From: an uncultured Candidatus Saccharibacteria bacterium
GTDB taxonomy: Bacteria; Patescibacteriota; Minisyncoccia; Phycocordibacterales; UBA918
Length of the DNA stretch: 64,000 bases
Direction: 5' to 3'
Assembly: GCA_964570795.1 (NCBI GenBank)
Contig: CAZMYZ010000001.1
Location: forward strand, 42,722-106,721
A model generated the notes under the pieces. That model did not search any database and was not told where the DNA came from. It saw nothing but the letters and a program-made list of their open reading frames with translations. Numbering within the stretch: the stretch's first letter is position 1; every line of letters starts with the position of its first letter. Below are positions 300-61,830 of this stretch, piece by piece. The position numbers and the translations under genes are program-made.

Positions 300-1050
300 C
301 ATTCAATGTTTGGTTTCGTAAACCCAACATAATTACTCGAGAAGAAGTTTTGATGGTGTGGCAGTTCGTCTGTCTGAAATATTCTGAAGATATTTCTCTG
401 TACTCCTTTGCACATCCCCAAGTTTTTCTTGAAATAGTGTTGTGGTGAGTATAGAAGGGAAGTTTCTTTTGCCAAGGTAATCTTGATAACTGCTCCATCG
501 GTACTGAAGAAGATATTCTTGAAGGTGTGAGAATTCCAATCCTTGAGTTATTGAAGAATCTCGAACTCGCCATTCTTGCGCTCCCTCAAGATAGTCGAGT
601 GGGTTGAGGTGTATGTAGTGGAGGATATATAAAAAGTGAGCGTCTGTTTCGATATGAATTTTCTTTGTACGTCCTTGAAATAGAGTACCTTTTCTTTGAT
701 ATCGTTCATTAAAATAATTTGCGTATCCAACATTAAGTTTTCGCATGAAAAGAGAGATACCACCCTCTCTACGCTCTGAGAGAAGTAGATGATAATGATT
801 GTGCATGAGAACCCATGCATGTATATCAACCAAAATCTCACGTTCTTTAATTGTGTTATCAGTAATATCACCAGGACGCCGATTTGATTGTGGTGCTGGG
901 TTTGTATCGTTGAATTCATACATGTCGTGTATAAAACGAACATAATCGCCAGAGCCTTTAAAAAGAGTCCGGCCGTCAACACCCCTGTTCAAAACATGGA
1001 ATAACTCCATATGATACAAGTATACATGTTGGGTTTACGAAACCCAACAT
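300..1050 (-). mobile_element. IS200/IS605-like (RAYT-type) element: Y1 transposase flanked by 25-bp palindromic hairpins
   Basis: tnpA ORF 333..1019 is bracketed by ATGTTTGGTTTCGTAAACCCAACAT (306-330) and ATGTTGGGTTTACGAAACCCAACAT (1025-1049); each is an 11-bp-stem palindrome and the two are mutual inverted repeats with one mismatch. Confidence 0.7.
333..1019 (-). CDS. tnpA: IS200/IS605-family Y1 (HUH) transposase, REP-associated tyrosine transposase-like
   Basis: 228 aa; motifs HAWVLMHNHYHLLL (HuH) and GRTKKIHIETDAHFLYILHYIHLNP (catalytic Tyr region) match the Y1_Tnp/RAYT fold. Confidence 0.8.
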   Translation of the reverse strand: MYHMELFHVLNRGVDGRTLFKGSGDYVRFIHDMYEFNDTNPAPQSNRRPGDITDNTIKEREILVDIHAWVLMHNHYHLLLSERREGGISLFMRKLNVGYANYFNERYQRKGTLFQGRTKKIHIETDAHFLYILHYIHLNPLDYLEGAQEWRVRDSSITQGLEFSHLQEYLLQYRWSSYQDYLGKRNFPSILTTTLFQEKLGDVQRSTEKYLQNISDRRTATPSKLLLE

Positions 1051-14830: not shown

Positions 14831-16048
14831 TTACTTTGTGTCTTTGAGCGCCATGGCAAAGAATAGTCCTGGAATCATAAGAAGCCCGAGTATCACAAAG
14901 AGAAAACTAAAGGAAAAGAAATGAAGGGTGACACCACCGAGTACGGGGCCAACGACATACGAAAGTGGGCGGGTAATACGGAAAAGGCTGATGACATTCG
15001 TATCTTTTCCTTGAGTATGCTTGAAGAAGTAACTCTCGGTAGTGGTTTCGATGAAACTCGCGCCGACACGGGTGAGGAACATTGCCGTCATCCAAAGAGC
15101 AATAGGAGCGTTGTTGAGGAACACAAACCATGAAGTAGCTACTGCGGTTACTGCAAATCCAAAAGCCATCATTTCTTTTTCACCGAGGTAGGTGTCGGCA
15201 ATTTTTCCTATAGCATACTCAAGAAGTACATATGCCATGAGTCCCACAAAAAGTATGGAACCTATTTCTTCCCATGAAAGCCCTATAACATCCGCGAGGT
15301 AGAGTGGGGTGTAGATCACCATCCAAGTAAAAAAGAATTGGAGTAGAAAATGTGCAAAAAATACATTGCGTACATCTTTGTATTGCCAAAAGTCTGCGAG
15401 CCCCTCGCGAAATTTAAAATGTGGATAGACAGGGTCTTTGAATGTTTTGAAGTGTTTGAGTACGACATAGATAAAGGGAATAAGGAAAAAGGCACTAAGA
15501 AGATATACAAGGACAAATTCGGATGCTGTTGCGCTCACATGGTGTGCAACACCAATGAGTTTCCCGAGCGCGAGCGGAGCGAGCGCCGTGGTGAGACTCA
15601 TGATGGTAAGAAGTATGCCGCGCTGTGCACCCGTGGACTCTTCCTTATCACCGATGAGTACCTCCATAATAATATCGAGATTGAAGAGGATAATGGGGAC
15701 AACCGCTTGGTGTACTACAAAGAGTGAAAGGCCAATGTAGGGGTTTACGGTAAGACCCATACCGACGAGTGCACAAAACTCGATAAGTGTCAGAACTTTA
15801 ATAAGAAAGATATTTCCGAAGCGAGTGAGAATATGCGATGCATAGAAGAATCCGCCGATGGTGACAAGAGATCCTCCGATATAGAGCATATCGATAACAC
15901 GGTGTGATGCGAGTTGTGCAAGGTATGATGAATTAATATAAAGCACAAATGCCCAATGGAGGGAAAGCAGCAGGAGAGCAGCGTAGTGTGCAAATTGCGC
16001 ACCGCGGCGTGACTCGGTACGGTATTCAGGGGTTACTGGTGTGGGCAT
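14831..16048 (-). CDS. MFS transporter
   Basis: 405 aa with 12 predicted TM helices and MFS-type loop motifs. Confidence 0.7.
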   Translation of the reverse strand: MPTPVTPEYRTESRRGAQFAHYAALLLLSLHWAFVLYINSSYLAQLASHRVIDMLYIGGSLVTIGGFFYASHILTRFGNIFLIKVLTLIEFCALVGMGLTVNPYIGLSLFVVHQAVVPIILFNLDIIMEVLIGDKEESTGAQRGILLTIMSLTTALAPLALGKLIGVAHHVSATASEFVLVYLLSAFFLIPFIYVVLKHFKTFKDPVYPHFKFREGLADFWQYKDVRNVFFAHFLLQFFFTWMVIYTPLYLADVIGLSWEEIGSILFVGLMAYVLLEYAIGKIADTYLGEKEMMAFGFAVTAVATSWFVFLNNAPIALWMTAMFLTRVGASFIETTTESYFFKHTQGKDTNVISLFRITRPLSYVVGPVLGGVTLHFFSFSFLFVILGLLMIPGLFFAMALKDTK

Positions 16049-35777: not shown

Positions 35778-35922
35778 TGGAGGCGGAGGGATTCGAACAT
35801 TACATGTTCAGTACCCGTTCAGGATAGTTTTGTTCGCCTTAAGGCTCCAAAACTATCTCTGAATGGCTTCGAATCCTGAACAGTCTCCCAGACTGTTCAT
35901 CTCCGCTTTCGCGGTGCTCAAG
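35778..35922 (-). mobile_element. ~145-bp tRNA-3'-end-associated insertion: 20-bp imperfect tRNA-Ser 3' copy plus 124-bp element with GAACATTACATGTTC palindrome
   Basis: 35778-35798 TGGAGGCGGAGGGATTCGAAC is an 80% copy of the tRNA-Ser 3' end at 35923-35943; the intervening 124 bp starts ATTACATGTTCAGTACCCGTTCAGG and resembles the element at 54358-54484; the minus-strand RNA would fold tRNA-like but is not a canonical tRNA. Confidence 0.45.
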
Positions 35923-36007
35923 CGGAGGCGAGAGGATTTGAACCTCCGAGGGCTTGCACCCTACTCGCTTTCCAAGCGAGCGCACTAGACCACTATGCGA
36001 CGCCTCC
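35923..36007 (-). tRNA. tRNA-Ser (anticodon GGA)
   Basis: 85-nt cloverleaf: acceptor GGAGGCG/CGCCTCC, anticodon arm CTCGC-TTGGAAA-GCGAG, long variable arm, T arm GGAGG-TTCAAAT-CCTCT; CCA not encoded. Confidence 0.85.
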
Positions 36008-36303
36008 GTATGTTATTTGATTATATCTCCTATGAGTGCAAACCTTCTAGTTTTCGTCCTATCATTCTTTGAATGCCTAACAGACGCTGTACACCTTATG
36101 AAGCGCACTATCGTCCTACAGACGCTGTTCATGTTGTATGATAGTTTCTTCCGTTGGTCGAAACTACCAACAACCTCTTGAGGAAGTCTCCCAGACTTCC
36201 TCACACTATGCGACGCCTCCGTGTAAGGTCCTATCTTACAAGATTTTTTTGTATCTATCTAGCATTTGTGGGAAAAATAGAAAGGCGGTATCGTAGTAGT
36301 ACT

Positions 36304-38407: not shown

Positions 38408-38431
38408 TATAAATGTTGTATAATTTGTAAG

Positions 38432-38745
38432 CGTTTGTGATCGCCCTATACGCTTAGGCATATGGGGAGGAAAGTCCGAACACACACCAGGGAAATCCTG
38501 GAAGGGTAGCGGGTAACGCCCGTCGTGGGTGACCATAGCGTTGCGAACAGAAACGACCCGGTTAAGTCCGGCTGAAACGGCTAAATACGTACTTGTGTGC
38601 AAGGCCGTGTCCAGTGAAATAGAGTTGCTTTGCAACTCTTAGTGTTCCGCACATTTCACCAGGAAGTGCCGCATGAGCGCATTGGTAACAATGCGCCTAG
38701 GTAAATGATCACACTGGTTTTCCAGACAGAATTCGGCTTATAGAC
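38432..38745 (+). ncRNA. rnpB: RNase P RNA (reduced bacterial-type)
   Basis: GGAGGAAAGTCCGAACAC (P4 5' strand), GGTAACGCCCG, CTGAAACGG and the 3' ACAGAATTCGGCTTAT (P4 3' strand; consensus ACAGAACCCGGCTTA); 5'/3' ends pair (GCGTTTGT/ACAAAC); about 315 nt. Confidence 0.75.
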
Positions 38746-38772
38746 GTACAAACAGACGCCCCTTCAAGGGGC
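38743..38772 (+). terminator. rho-independent terminator after rnpB
   Basis: ACAGACGCCCC-TTCAA-GGGGCGTCTGT-TTGT. Confidence 0.6.
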
Positions 38773-45691: not shown

Positions 45692-45727
45692 GTATTGCAC
45701 TATAAACCCAACGCACAAAACTAAAAG

Positions 45728-45758
45728 GAAAACCATCCCGACGGATGGTTTTCTTTAT
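45728..45758 (+). terminator. rho-independent terminator
   Basis: GAAAACCATCC-CGAC-GGATGGTTTTC-TTT. Confidence 0.65.
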
Positions 45759-45794
45759 GTTTTGTGCCCTAGGCAGGAATCGGACCCACATTGA

Positions 45795-46509: not shown

Positions 46510-46582
46510 GCTGAGGTAGCTCAGTTGGTAGAGCATTTGTCTGAAGAACAAAGGGTCGGCGGTTCGAGCCCGCCCCTCAGCA
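46510..46582 (+). tRNA. tRNA-Phe (anticodon GAA)
   Basis: Acceptor GCTGAGG/CCTCAGC, D arm TAGCTCAGTTGGTAGAGCA, anticodon loop CTGAAGA, T arm GGCGG-TTCGAGC-CCGCC. Confidence 0.9.
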
Positions 46583-46640
46583 CACTGTACACAGAAAGCC
46601 CCGAAAGGGGTCTTTTCTGTGTACAGTGTGCTGAGGGAGC
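46575..46640 (+). terminator. long nested hairpin embedding the tRNA-Phe 3' acceptor end
   Basis: CCTCAGCACACTGTACACAGAAA-GCCCC-GAAA-GGGGT-C-TTTCTGTGTACAGTGTGCTGAGG, a 23-bp outer stem whose 5' arm starts inside the tRNA acceptor 3' strand. Confidence 0.5.
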
Positions 46641-47088
46641 ACGATACATAGGCATCGTGCGTGCGGGCTGAAATAGTTTGGGAAACTATTTCAGGAGGTT
46701 GTCGATATTTTGACGTAAGGAAAAATATCATACAACCTGAACTGAAGCAGTAGGCTTCGAAAGGCGGAATGATGTTGCTTTGCAACGAATGAGCCAGGGC
46801 AGGAGGCACTTAGTATTTTGTGAGGTAACGAAACAAAATACTTAGTGACCTGCGCCGAGCCTGCCACTCACTACCACGCTTCTACCAAATTCTATTTAGC
46901 AACTTGATGCCAGTATACAGAAACACCACCCAATAAAGGGTGGTGTTTCTTGTTCCCATAGGGCTGACCTATGTAATCAGAGTGTCAGCGAATTGCTGGC
47001 GGACGCCGTGCCCTCCTCTCATTCGTCAGCGAACAGATTGTAAGTCATCAAAAAAATAGGCTCCAAAGCGGAGCCTATCATAGAGCGT

Positions 47089-49477: not shown

Positions 49478-49625
49478 AGGGCTCAGAAAATATAGTTCTT
49501 ACAGAACCTGTCCAATCATTGGGTCTTTTGTCTCATTTCACCTGCCTGCCGGCAGGTTCACAAAAGCCCTCAATGAGTCTTGCGAAGTGATATTAAATCA
49601 CTTCTCACACTAACGCTCTTTATTT
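49478..49625 (-). repeat. ~130-bp structured repeat, copy A (inverted relative to copy B at 61698-61830)
   Basis: The reverse complement aligns with 61698-61830 (GAGCGT(T/C)AG(T/C)GTGAGAAGTGA...TCACTTCGCAAGACTCATTGAGG...CAAAAGACCCAATGA...TGGACAG); the core hairpin shows compensatory changes (GAAGTGAT/ATCACTTC vs GAAGTGAC/GTCACTTC); copy A also carries a CCTGCCGGCAGG palindromic insertion and an adjacent 17-bp-stem hairpin at 49443-49480. Confidence 0.55.
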
Positions 49626-54039: not shown

Positions 54040-54337
54040 GAAATTTCTACGCTGTGGCTCGCATCAGGGTCCGGAAGCAAAGCCTTTTGCTTGGTGGTGT
54101 CAGGTTACTAATTCGCTGCTCCAATAAACTGTTCGTGGTCACGAATCGCTAACTATATTTCTTCGCTACGCTCGAAATCCAGTAAGCGTTCTCGACCCCC
54201 GCCTCGCGGTTTTTCTTTCTGAGAAGAAAGAAAAACATCGCTGTGGCTCGCACTGAGGTACGCAGGCAAAGCAGTTTGCCTGCTAAACCAAAAAACAATC
54301 ATTCCTAAGAATGATTGTTTTTTGGTTTACCTCAGTG
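54040..54337. repeat. tRNA-trailer repeat region: ~85-bp dispersed repeat plus two-hairpin module (copy 1 of 2)
   Basis: 54118-54210 (GTGGTCACGAATCGCTAAC...TTCTCGACCCCCGCCTCGCGG) is homologous to 60845-60925; 54251-54337 is CACTGAGGTA-[GCAGGCAAA-GCAG-TTTGCCTGC]-[TAAACCAAAAAACAATCATTC-CTAAGA-GAATGATTGTTTTTTGGTTTA]-TACCTCAGTG; CGCTGTGGCTCGCA occurs twice. Confidence 0.5.
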
Positions 54338-54485
54338 CGCGATACAGGACTTGAACATTACATGTTCCGTTCAGGTTGTATGACGATTTCTTCCGTTGGT
54401 CGAAATCGTCGACAACCTCTTCAAGTCCAGGGCGACTGTTTACTAAAAAAAGCCAGACACAAGGCCTGACTATTTTTAGTAAAAG
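54335..54485 (-). mobile_element. ~150-bp insertion at the tRNA-Val 3' end: 23-bp perfect direct repeat of the tRNA 3' end flanking a 127-bp element
   Basis: GTGCGCGATACAGGACTTGAAC occurs at 54335-54357 and again as the real tRNA-Val 3' end at 54485-54507; the intervening 127 bp starts ATTACATGTTCCGTTCAGG, resembles the tRNA-Ser(GGA) element and holds a long bulged hairpin (GACGATTTC...GAAATCGTC). Confidence 0.5.
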
Positions 54486-54558
54486 TGCGCGATACAGGAC
54501 TTGAACCTGTGACCCCCACAATGTCAATGTGATGCTCTACCAACTGAGCTAACCGCGC
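54486..54558 (-). tRNA. tRNA-Val (anticodon GAC)
   Basis: Acceptor GCGCGGT/ATCGCGC, D arm TAGCTCAGTTGGTAGAGCA, anticodon arm TCACA-TTGACAT-TGTGG, T arm ACAGG-TTCAAGT-CCTGT; no CCA encoded. Confidence 0.85.
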
Positions 54559-61172: not shown

Positions 61173-61244
61173 TGACCCCACGGAGAATCGAACTCCGATT
61201 TCCAGGATGAAAACCTGATGTCCTAACCGTTAGACGATGGGGCC
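61173..61244 (-). tRNA. tRNA-Glu (anticodon UUC)
   Basis: Acceptor GGCCCCA/TGGGGTC, D arm TCGTCTAACGGTTAGGACA, anticodon arm TCAGG-TTTTCAT-CCTGG, T arm CGGAG-TTCGATT-CTCCG; no CCA. Confidence 0.85.
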
Positions 61245-61462
61245 GGACGAAATTCTTTAATTTTGTCCGGCCCCATCGTCGATGACGAGGGGTGAGAAAG
61301 TCTGGGAGACTTTCGCAAGACCTTGCCTGATATTTTTTGAGGCAAAAAGCCGAAGAAAAATATCGACAAGGTGTACAGTCCCTGTAAGGGACAATATACT
61401 CCGAACCTCGCTATACTACCGAAAAATCAAAAAAAATGCTAGTTTTATAATTCATACACTCT

Positions 61463-61549
61463 GGAAGAGTGGCTGAGAGGTTGAAGGCACATGTCTCGAA
61501 AACATGCATGGGGGAAACCCCATCGGGGGTTCAAATCCCCCCTCTTCCG
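61463..61549 (+). tRNA. tRNA-Ser (anticodon CGA)
   Basis: Acceptor GGAAGAG/CTCTTCC, anticodon arm CATGT-CTCGAAA-ACATG, long variable arm, T arm GGGGG-TTCAAAT-CCCCC. Confidence 0.85.
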
Positions 61550-61556
61550 CTCGTAG

Positions 61557-61586
61557 AAAATACCGCCATTACGGCGGTTATTTTCT
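61557..61586 (+). terminator. rho-independent terminator after tRNA-Ser
   Basis: AAAATACCGCC-ATTAC-GGCGGTTATTTTC. Confidence 0.6.
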
Positions 61587-61697
61587 TGAGCGGAAGAGGA
61601 ACAAAGCACCTGCGTGCTTTGTGTGGGGATTTGAAAATGCAAAGTATATTTTCTGCTTTCATAATGCAGAAAATACTTTGCATCGGGCAGGTAATTC

Positions 61698-61830
61698 TTA
61701 TGAGCGTCAGCGTGAGAAGTGACTTGATGTCACTTCGCAAGACTCATTGAGGACTTTTGTGAATGAAATGAAACAAAAGACCCAATGAGTGGACAGTTCC
61801 TGTAAGGAATTAGAATTGGACGCCGAATCC
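61698..61830 (+). repeat. ~130-bp structured repeat, copy B
   Basis: See copy A (49478-49625); contains hairpin GAAGTGAC-TTGAT-GTCACTTC and the conserved CAAAAGACCCAATGAGTGGACAG block; also a palindrome GCAAAGTATATTTTCTGC...GCAGAAAATACTTTGC just upstream (61637-61680). Confidence 0.55.

Follow-up and report, generated by a model that had tools for sequence, protein, structure and literature searches.

The described systems closest to the element reported here are the repetitive extragenic palindromic (REP)/REPIN repeats with their REP-associated tyrosine transposases (RAYTs), the palindrome-associated transposable elements (PATEs) derived from IS200/IS605 insertion sequences (IS), the integrative and cis-mobilizable elements (CIMEs) at tRNA 3' ends, the folded attachment (att) sites of integrons and CTX phage, and the introns of tRNA genes. 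These were compared with a non-coding three-hairpin unit of ~90 nt, here called M, found in a 64,000-nt stretch of DNA from an uncultured Candidatus Saccharibacteria bacterium (contig CAZMYZ010000001.1, positions 42,722 to 106,721; hereafter the window, whose own numbering is used throughout). Genomes of the candidate phyla radiation (CPR, or Patescibacteria) are tiny and were considered poor in repetitive DNA. The window holds seven copies of M in 64 kb, and neither Rfam nor the literature searched contains a description of such an element. M is probably (at a rough probability of 0.6) a non-autonomous, hairpin-dependent mobile DNA element of Patescibacteria that targets the loops of tRNA genes.

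Relation to known repeats and insertions

Like the REP/REPIN-RAYT system, M is a short, abundant, non-coding, extragenic hairpin repeat with a conserved GTA(G/A), and the genome carries a single-copy Y1 transposase-like gene flanked by inverted hairpins. Unlike a REP, which is a single palindrome of 20–40 nt, M comprises three hairpins over ~90 nt; its GTAA or GTAG is conserved in a hairpin loop rather than 5' of the stem, its own 5' end being TGAG, and the hairpins flanking the RAYT-like gene of the window differ from M and are not dispersed. We know of no REPs that target the loops of tRNA genes. With the PATEs, M shares a hairpin at either end, a conserved G as the base just before its 5' end, and the lack of both terminal inverted repeats (TGAG at one end and the stem around NGTAR at the other are not inverted repeats) and a detectable target duplication (0–1 nt ambiguous), so that the hallmarks of a classical miniature inverted-repeat transposable element are absent. 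It appears to differ from PATEs: its copies show no strand bias in the window, no autonomous IS with matching ends was found, and what marks its target seems to be structure within tRNA-gene DNA and not a fixed tetra- or pentanucleotide.

Integrative elements and CIMEs at tRNA 3' ends have in common with M the insertion at the T loop, a replacement 3' end borne by the insert, displacement of the original 3' end, tandem arrays and direct repeats that flank the insert (23 of 23 nt at tRNA-Val and 16 of 21 at tRNA-Ser). M is nevertheless ~100-fold smaller, has no integrase, is associated with 5' duplications too, and also occupies D, anticodon and variable loops, takes both orientations and occurs away from tRNAs. 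Integron attC and CTX phage attP(+) are folded att mimics, and M resembles them in having a conserved structure of variable sequence, a G^TT junction and an inverted repeat of antisense and sense T loop that has a variable core within it and imitates a duplex target. It is without their core GTTRRRY consensus, its central region is structurally highly conserved, and no link to IntI or Xer emerged. Archaeal bulge-helix-bulge (BHB) introns and the group I introns of tRNA genes in Patescibacteria (PMC13011429) are likewise short or structured inserts at several tRNA loop positions, in a lineage known for interrupted RNA genes, whereas the tRNA copies that host M are truncated pseudogenes beside an intact gene, some insertions are antisense and neither a ribozyme nor a BHB signature is present. 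Each of these closest systems has defining features that M lacks, and M is a non-autonomous hairpin repeat of a known kind with an unusual target and consequence. It is of interest chiefly because it is abundant in CPR genomes and related to essential tRNA genes.

Structure and family size of M

M consists of the hairpins P1, P2 and P3 in that order, joined by AAGA and by GNACNG. P1 starts with TGAG and usually has a TGGGA loop, P2 is long and bulged, and P3 has a 5-bp stem and an NGTAR loop; all seven segments of the window fold into these same three hairpins. The base at position −1 is G in nearly all copies, with no longer motif evident. Several unpaired nucleotides are invariant across the aligned copies, and the 5' TGAG with its conserved A.G mismatch is nearly so, even though it lay outside the pattern used for the metagenome search.

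A first covariance model (R1) was built from five hand-trimmed seeds with shortened loops and bulges, because MAFFT and RNAalifold misaligned P1 and the inner part of P2 when given raw copies, and was validated on real sequence. In the window, R1 recovered seven copies and no more, two of which had not been seeds; the next match, at 24 bits, was a generic hairpin. Built without the copies downstream of tRNA-Ser(GGA) and tRNA-Val, the model scored these two at 35.7 and 31.3 bits (E = 6e-7 and 7e-6), and blastn aligned them over 31 nt at 81 %, in agreement with the homology noted in a preliminary description of the tRNA-Ser(GGA) segment that had been made from the sequence alone. Blastn and a descriptor scan located related segments by tRNA-Phe, in the valS–prsW spacer, upstream of tRNA-Ser(GGA) and on either side of tRNA-Ser(CGA). 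The preliminary description had missed these five further copies while raising the question of additional copies at tRNA 3' ends, where many members of the family indeed lie.

At E<1e-3, R1 gave at least 146 matches in the 120 metagenome contigs listed, often several per contig (contigs and loci used for comparison are denoted by L numbers). Across 118 aligned copies, 90.8 % of pair cells were paired, compared with 64 % in shuffles and 35–47 % for slid partners, and 29 of 32 pairs changed on both sides. The stems are almost purely Watson–Crick, with G.T and A.C making up 1.9 and 0.9 % of pair cells. Copies lie mostly outside called open reading frames (ORFs), both in the window and in the metagenome contigs. 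Loci anchored on flanking proteins assign the window to a Kaiserbacteria-like member of the Patescibacteria and speak against a Bacteroidetes origin, which a TAnnTTTG-like box had suggested. In relatives identified by their valS homologues, M is found at other tRNAs. At gathering thresholds, Rfam reported only tRNAs and RNase P in the whole window, and permissive scans (E≤10) of three M copies returned nothing meaningful. In viral contigs, the palindrome-plus-T-loop pattern had no matches and the family pattern a single chance match, which was rejected by the model.

The perfect 15-nt palindrome singled out in the preliminary description is the covarying hairpin P3 of M and not an att core. 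Its stem sequence varies from copy to copy in the alignments, other copies having for example CGTC-TGTAG-GACG, GAAGC-AGTAG-GCTTC or GTCCC-TGTAA-GGGAC, and L116, an unrelated contig, has exactly the same palindrome. The sequence GAACATTACATGTTC has exactly two sites in the window, 35795–35809 and 54353–54367, against a chance expectation of ~0.21 matches even when two mismatches are allowed.

The tRNA-Ser(GGA) locus

On the minus strand, the intact tRNA-Ser(GGA) gene (35922..36007; ARAGORN; Rfam tRNA, 56.5 bits) is followed by 123 nt (35799–35921) and then by GTTCGAATCCCTCCGCCTCCA (35798–35778), a displaced and diverged fragment of tRNA-Ser from T loop to 3' end (35778..35798; sequence comparison and blastn against tRNAs). 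The fragment has the acceptor strand CGCCTCC of the intact gene and no CCA. The displaced tRNA 3' half of the preliminary description is thus real and starts at the T loop; the lengths and identity given there, a 124-bp segment and an 80 % identical copy, are replaced by 123 nt and, by manual count, 16 of 21 identical positions (76 %).

The spacer next to the gene (35900..35921, −; sequence and DNA fold) contains GCGGAG (35906–35901), which complements CTCCGC both at the tRNA-Ser 3' end and in the displaced fragment and forms the acceptor-like outer stem of the predicted fold. Next comes M, a covariance-model match at 35795–35899, starting with P1 (TGAACAGTC, TGGGA loop, GACTGTTCA; 35877..35899, −), which is seen in the per-copy fold and covaries across the 118 copies. 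An antisense T-loop segment, GGATTCGAA (35868..35876, −), recognized by its sequence and predicted pairing, separates P1 from P2 (35818..35863, −; per-copy fold, covariance model and covariation). In the alignments, the joining strand J23 (CGGGTACT; 35810..35817, −) is the local form of the conserved GNACNG motif. P3 (GAACA, TGTAA loop, TGTTC; 35795..35809, −) ends in TTC, which is T54-T55-C56 of the displaced fragment. No T-run terminator lies between tRNA-Ser(GGA) and this copy of M (SerGGA_down).

GGATTCGAA complements TTCGAATCC of the displaced fragment (35797–35789) and is predicted to form with it a closing helix, P0, around P2 and P3. Copies linked to a tRNA 3' fragment all have such a segment antisense to the T loop 5' of P2, predicted to pair with TTCRANTCC after P3 into a three-way junction with P2 and P3; examples besides GGATTCGAA (35876–35868) are GGACTTGAA (54428–54420) at tRNA-Val of the window and the segments in L130, L088 and L042, with the same arrangement of antisense segment and fragment at tRNA-Val and in L130 and L088. 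P3 begins with GAA in every one of these T-loop copies because its last three bases belong to the tRNA fragment, and the palindrome at tRNA-Ser is perfect because the TTC of the displaced fragment completes it. The minus strand at tRNA-Ser has a predicted multi-branch fold (−36.9 kcal/mol, z = −7.8; z = −6.1 at tRNA-Val), and ARAGORN and Rfam call no tRNA there. The tRNA-like but non-canonical shape described earlier was therefore recovered as a fold, and it stems from the three-way junction and the outer GCGGAG/CTCCGC stem. The 3' strand that P1 has in standard copies (...TTCGCA|AGA) is similar to antisense T-loop sequence (...TCGAA|AAG), which suggests that P1 may have descended from a T-arm-derived inverted repeat.

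A duplicate of the tRNA-Ser 5' end with M inserted in it, which the preliminary description had missed, lies upstream of the intact gene. The 5' stump of this older, disrupted copy (36204..36222, −; repeat search) is identical to 35991–36009, comprising tRNA-Ser positions 1–17 and two leader bases. The second copy of M, SerGGA_up (36111..36203, −; covariance model, 76.5 bits; flanks), lies in the D loop of the older copy and is followed by tRNA positions 21–31 (TAGTGCGCTTC, 36110–36100) and a partial J23–P3 remnant (36095–36075). The same layout was observed in L102, from a different organism, where positions 1–260 (−) read tRNA-Ser 1–17, M, tRNA-Ser 21–27 and intact tRNA-Ser(GGA), as in 36222–35922 of the window. 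Only 28 nt separate M from the intact gene in L102, where the pre-tRNA leader may thus include M.

Four Logan contigs of the same strain (L001–L004), each from a separate run and 100 % identical to the window, stop within or shortly before the tRNA-Ser/M locus (35817, 35976, 35976 and 36009). These contig ends suggest assembly breakage by the repeats or population variation at the locus. When the orthologous tRNA-Ser(GGA) site was sought through its NadR-like neighbour, synteny was not kept in L005 and L006.

Other copies, empty sites and nesting

The tRNA-Val gene (54485–54558, −) is followed by M at 54353..54447 (−), with P2 at 54417–54374 and P3 at 54367–54353, and by its displaced original 3' end, an exact 23-nt copy at 54334..54356 (−; = 54484–54506) found by repeat search. 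In L049, intact tRNA-Val runs straight into AGCAGGCAAACTGCTTTGCCTGCG, which in the window comes after the tRNA-Val fragment; the intervening 150 nt of the window are therefore an insertion. Downstream of tRNA-Phe, M (46669..46758, +; covariance model and comparison with the relative L043) lies within antisense T-loop sequence, between GGGC and TCGAAAG (GGGC^TCGAAAG), and in L043 the corresponding GGGCTCGAAAG downstream of tRNA-Phe is uninterrupted. This filled and empty pair leaves at most one ambiguous nucleotide and no detectable target duplication. The copy between valS and prsW (49494..49607, −; descriptor scan and comparison with relatives) is missing from that spacer in L042, L043 and L049. 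Empty sites in related genomes, proposed in the preliminary description as a test, are thus present at tRNA-Val in L049 and at tRNA-Phe in L043. The remaining two copies, both found with the covariance model, lie upstream (61293..61392, +) and downstream (61713..61810, +) of tRNA-Ser(CGA). Located 12 nt before the former, GGCCCCATCGTC is the sequence of tRNA-Glu positions 1–12 on the same strand as M, and may just as well represent an inverted repeat of the 5' end of the adjacent minus-strand tRNA-Glu.

Copies are also found inside and next to one another. L088 contains a complete M nested within another unit, a 1.3-kb stretch of L145 carries five copies of mixed orientation, and at tRNA-Val of L042 there are tandem units of terminator, M and fragment. 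From the repeats, nesting and presence or absence among relatives, M evidently moves or moved recently, in keeping with the earlier view of the tRNA-Ser segment as an insertion belonging to a mobile family tied to tRNA genes.

A further small structured repeat, referred to as element 2 (...CTTGAACTGCRYTCGTA-hairpin-TTGTTCAAGTAG), was observed in the GTAR loop of P3 or after AGTAG. It occurs at L042 7717–7800, L049 8033–8100, L088 3667–3738 and L145 around 615–690 and 880–955, sitting in L088 in the GTAA loop of a P3; it was looked for in the window and is not present there.

Preference for tRNA genes

M lies within 300 nt of a tRNA in 52 of 158 copies (33 %), compared with 6.1 % of sampled sequence (binomial p ~1e-24), and these tRNA-near copies have the same orientation as the tRNA in a ratio of 40:12 (p ~1e-4). 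Relative to flanking ORFs, orientation is near random, with 31 copies same/same, 25 opposite/opposite and 27 mixed. Thirty-eight of the 158 copies directly abut tRNA sequence, and seven have both flanks contiguous in one tRNA. The junctions fall at tRNA positions 53/54, 17–26, 35–38 and 45–51, which are single-stranded positions of the cloverleaf.

The commonest junction is G53^T54 in the T loop, as in L078 Lys (a clean insertion) and L060 Ile, with others a few positions away (L065 Gly, L072 Gly, L080, L163 and L042 Gln). Junctions within or adjoining the D arm (~17–26) were found in L049 Val, L098/L138, L083/L146 Asn, L102 Ser and the window (36204|36203). Those in the anticodon loop (L119, L157 and L099) are antisense and all in tRNA-Ile, and two contigs (L076 and L171) have junctions in the variable region. 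M was also found at intergenic sites without tRNA sequence. In L042, the disrupted tRNA-Gln was additionally observed to have a 52-nt insert in its anticodon loop (14983–15034) that is unrelated to M.

All M-interrupted tRNA copies examined are partial, and each lies beside an intact copy of the same tRNA. The stumps either start at position 1 and lie upstream of the intact copy or reach the 3' end and lie downstream of it, so that duplication affects both the 5' and the 3' parts of tRNAs, and the duplicated identity block ranges from 12 to 53 nt. The fragments are copies of genes and not of mature tRNAs, because they keep the genomic 3' flank and lack CCA. Retro-copying of mature tRNA was ruled out on the same grounds.

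Candidate enzyme

The window contains a single-copy, RAYT-like gene (333..1010, −; Pfam, NCBIfam and flanks) for a Y1 (HUH) transposase-like protein of 225 aa. Its product matches Pfam PF01797 (Y1_Tnp) at 28.2 bits (cut-off 23) and, as its best NCBIfam match, REP_Tyr_transpos (REP-associated tyrosine transposase) at 39 bits, which is below the cut-off of 80; the translation has an HUH-like motif (HNHYH) and a Tyr-region motif (YIHLNP). Inverted GGTTTCGTAAACC hairpins flank the gene at 303–331 and 1018–1056. The protein belongs to a Patescibacteria family with 2792 members at E≤1e-5, whose gene neighbourhood differs in each genome examined and whose genes invariably lie between hairpins that have covarying stems and a conserved TTCGTAA apex (CGTA loop). 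The ends of the Y1 gene at 333..1010, the only one found, differ from M. The protein is a candidate for the trans-acting enzyme of M.

Other proteins were considered as mobilizing enzymes and rejected. The neighbours that recur beside M are housekeeping genes only (EF-G, FtsZ, FtsW, PilM and similar), and neighbouring genes included no integrase in or near any copy. A 335-aa protein in L042 (13621–14628) with only HTH_38, a transposase-type helix-turn-helix, adjoins a pair of disrupted and intact tRNA-Gln genes with M, and does not recur at other loci.

Mode of insertion and alternative explanations

As a mobile DNA element, M would insert without terminal inverted repeats or a visible target duplication, preferring cloverleaf-loop positions. 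Its hairpins would act as single-stranded DNA, and a trans-acting enzyme, possibly the RAYT-like Y1 HUH transposase encoded at 333–1010, would catalyse insertion. We infer that the hairpins function as DNA rather than RNA from the Watson–Crick stems, the near-random orientation relative to ORFs and the polymorphic and nested insertions, all of which favour this. At tRNA-Ser(GGA), the inserted block would run from the present T54 through the spacer, P1, antisense T loop and P2 to the first part of P3. Since such a block starts at T54 of the present gene, it would supply a replacement from T loop to 3' end; T54 to the 3' end of the intact gene would then have come with the insertion, and the original 3' end (35798–35778) would have been pushed downstream, where it is decaying. 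A second, older insertion would have taken place in the D loop of the duplicated tRNA-Ser copy just upstream (36222–36100). For the duplication of tRNA parts, M may have been mobilized together with adjacent DNA, the T arm serving as a surrogate end; a circle of M plus flank may have recombined in Campbell fashion; or M insertions may survive only in redundant pieces of tRNA genes.

Several observations weigh against this interpretation. No demonstrated step explains the duplication of tRNA parts. No transposase or recombinase is tied to M: the GGTTTCGTAAACC hairpins are not M, a search for dispersed copies of them found only the gene-adjacent ones, and 62 kb around three Y1 genes contained no M, those stretches holding only one tRNA. 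Elements of the IS200/IS605 type are expected to show strand bias, and the copies of the window show none (three plus, four minus, with GC skew positive throughout). The 40:12 co-orientation with tRNAs could equally mean a role at the RNA level, and the layout shared by L102 and the window could reflect functional conservation rather than mobility. The metagenome contigs were moreover chosen with a family pattern that fixed part of the consensus.

One alternative is a functional structured RNA. M would then serve within tRNA transcription units, in cis or as a small RNA, in processing, stability or termination and would have multiplied by duplication, with the tRNA fragments as by-products of recombination at tRNA loci. 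The very strong covariation, the invariant unpaired nucleotides and the co-orientation with tRNAs fit such a module, as do the position of M in a possible 5' leader of tRNA-Ser(GGA) in L102 and the window and the missing T-run terminator between tRNA and M at SerGGA_down. It is nevertheless unlikely, given the near-random orientation to protein-coding neighbours, G.U pairs in only 1.9 % of cells, presence or absence at three sites among close relatives, copies within dead tRNA fragments or nested in one another, clusters in both orientations and the lack of any Rfam family match. There is a similarly small chance that M is a cargo-less att-site cassette mobilized in trans by a tyrosine integrase, with the T-loop-to-3'-end of the tRNA as attB and the duplicated 3' end as the attL/attR identity block. 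The duplicates at tRNA-Val (exact, 23 nt) and tRNA-Ser (diverged) would be so explained; the T-loop junction is a classic integrase sublocation, tandem units as at tRNA-Val of L042 would follow from repeated integration, and folding of the antisense with the sense T loop could produce a double-stranded att mimic like those of CTX phage attP and integron attC. Such a cassette does not account for M in D, antisense anticodon and variable loops and at non-tRNA sites, for duplicated 5' parts of tRNAs, for an identity block varying from 12 to 53 nt or for a P3 stem of unconserved sequence, and no integrase lies in or beside any copy. For the same reasons, the preliminary reading of the locus as a classic signature of site-specific integration was not upheld.

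Two further explanations were considered. Palindrome-driven template switching and illegitimate recombination around terminator hairpins and the T-loop TTCGAA, in genomes with reduced repair, would need no dedicated element; long perfect terminator palindromes do contain tRNA 3' ends, many tRNAs have sense and antisense T-arm copies both up- and downstream, and TTCGAA is itself palindromic. We consider this very improbable, as it leaves unexplained a discrete ~90-nt unit with a fixed 5' TGAG, invariant unpaired motifs and at least 146 covarying copies across many organisms, as well as insertion at palindrome-free sites. The view that M is an intervening sequence spliced from tRNA genes, comparable to archaeal multi-position introns, would fit its loop positions, which recall those of archaeal non-canonical introns. 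Group I introns have also been reported in tRNA genes of Patescibacteria (PMC13011429), although that report concerns a different element and does not mention such fragments or repeats. Since no M-bearing tRNA copy examined is full-length and each has an intact, uninterrupted copy next to it, some copies of M are antisense to the tRNA, and M is ~90 nt long with no Rfam group I match, the intron explanation is close to refuted.

A more specific version of the mobile-element interpretation is possible but doubtful. M would be the mobile substrate of a hitherto undescribed, structure-guided insertion system that recognizes the folded single-stranded DNA of tRNA genes (or tRNA) at cloverleaf loops and rebuilds the gene it hits by co-copying the missing part, with the antisense T-loop segment as a built-in T-loop guide; this would make M a class of tRNA-specific, self-repairing miniature transposon peculiar to CPR bacteria. 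If loop targeting and coupled tRNA restoration are true, M would represent a new way for a minimal element to parasitize essential genes without killing the host, and the clade's large family of orphan Y1 transposases would gain a defined substrate open to testing. M yields tRNA-gene debris and partial duplications and probably assembly breaks. Some of the tRNA fragments and false att sites in CPR genome annotation may stem from it, and it is a plausible cause of contig breaks that bear on the assembly and binning of CPR genomes.

Other features

Long near-perfect palindromes embed the ends of several tRNA genes, at 46575–46638 (Phe), 61541–61599 (Ser CGA), ~45700–45775 (Arg) and 61233–61275 (Glu 5' end). 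The terminal 9–13 tRNA bases recur inverted beyond the terminator hairpin, except at tRNA-Glu, where they do so ahead of the gene. At many loci, inverted copies of a tRNA's own T arm occur at rather fixed distances on either side, 24–39 nt upstream (L053, L072, L127, L139 and L168) and 55–80 nt downstream (L058, L088, L111, L151 and L156), and the downstream copies often precede a AGCGGAACGATG-like motif and a hairpin. The bacterial class A RNase P RNA of the window (38424–38756, +) scores low for its family, at 122.9 bits against a gathering score of 100.

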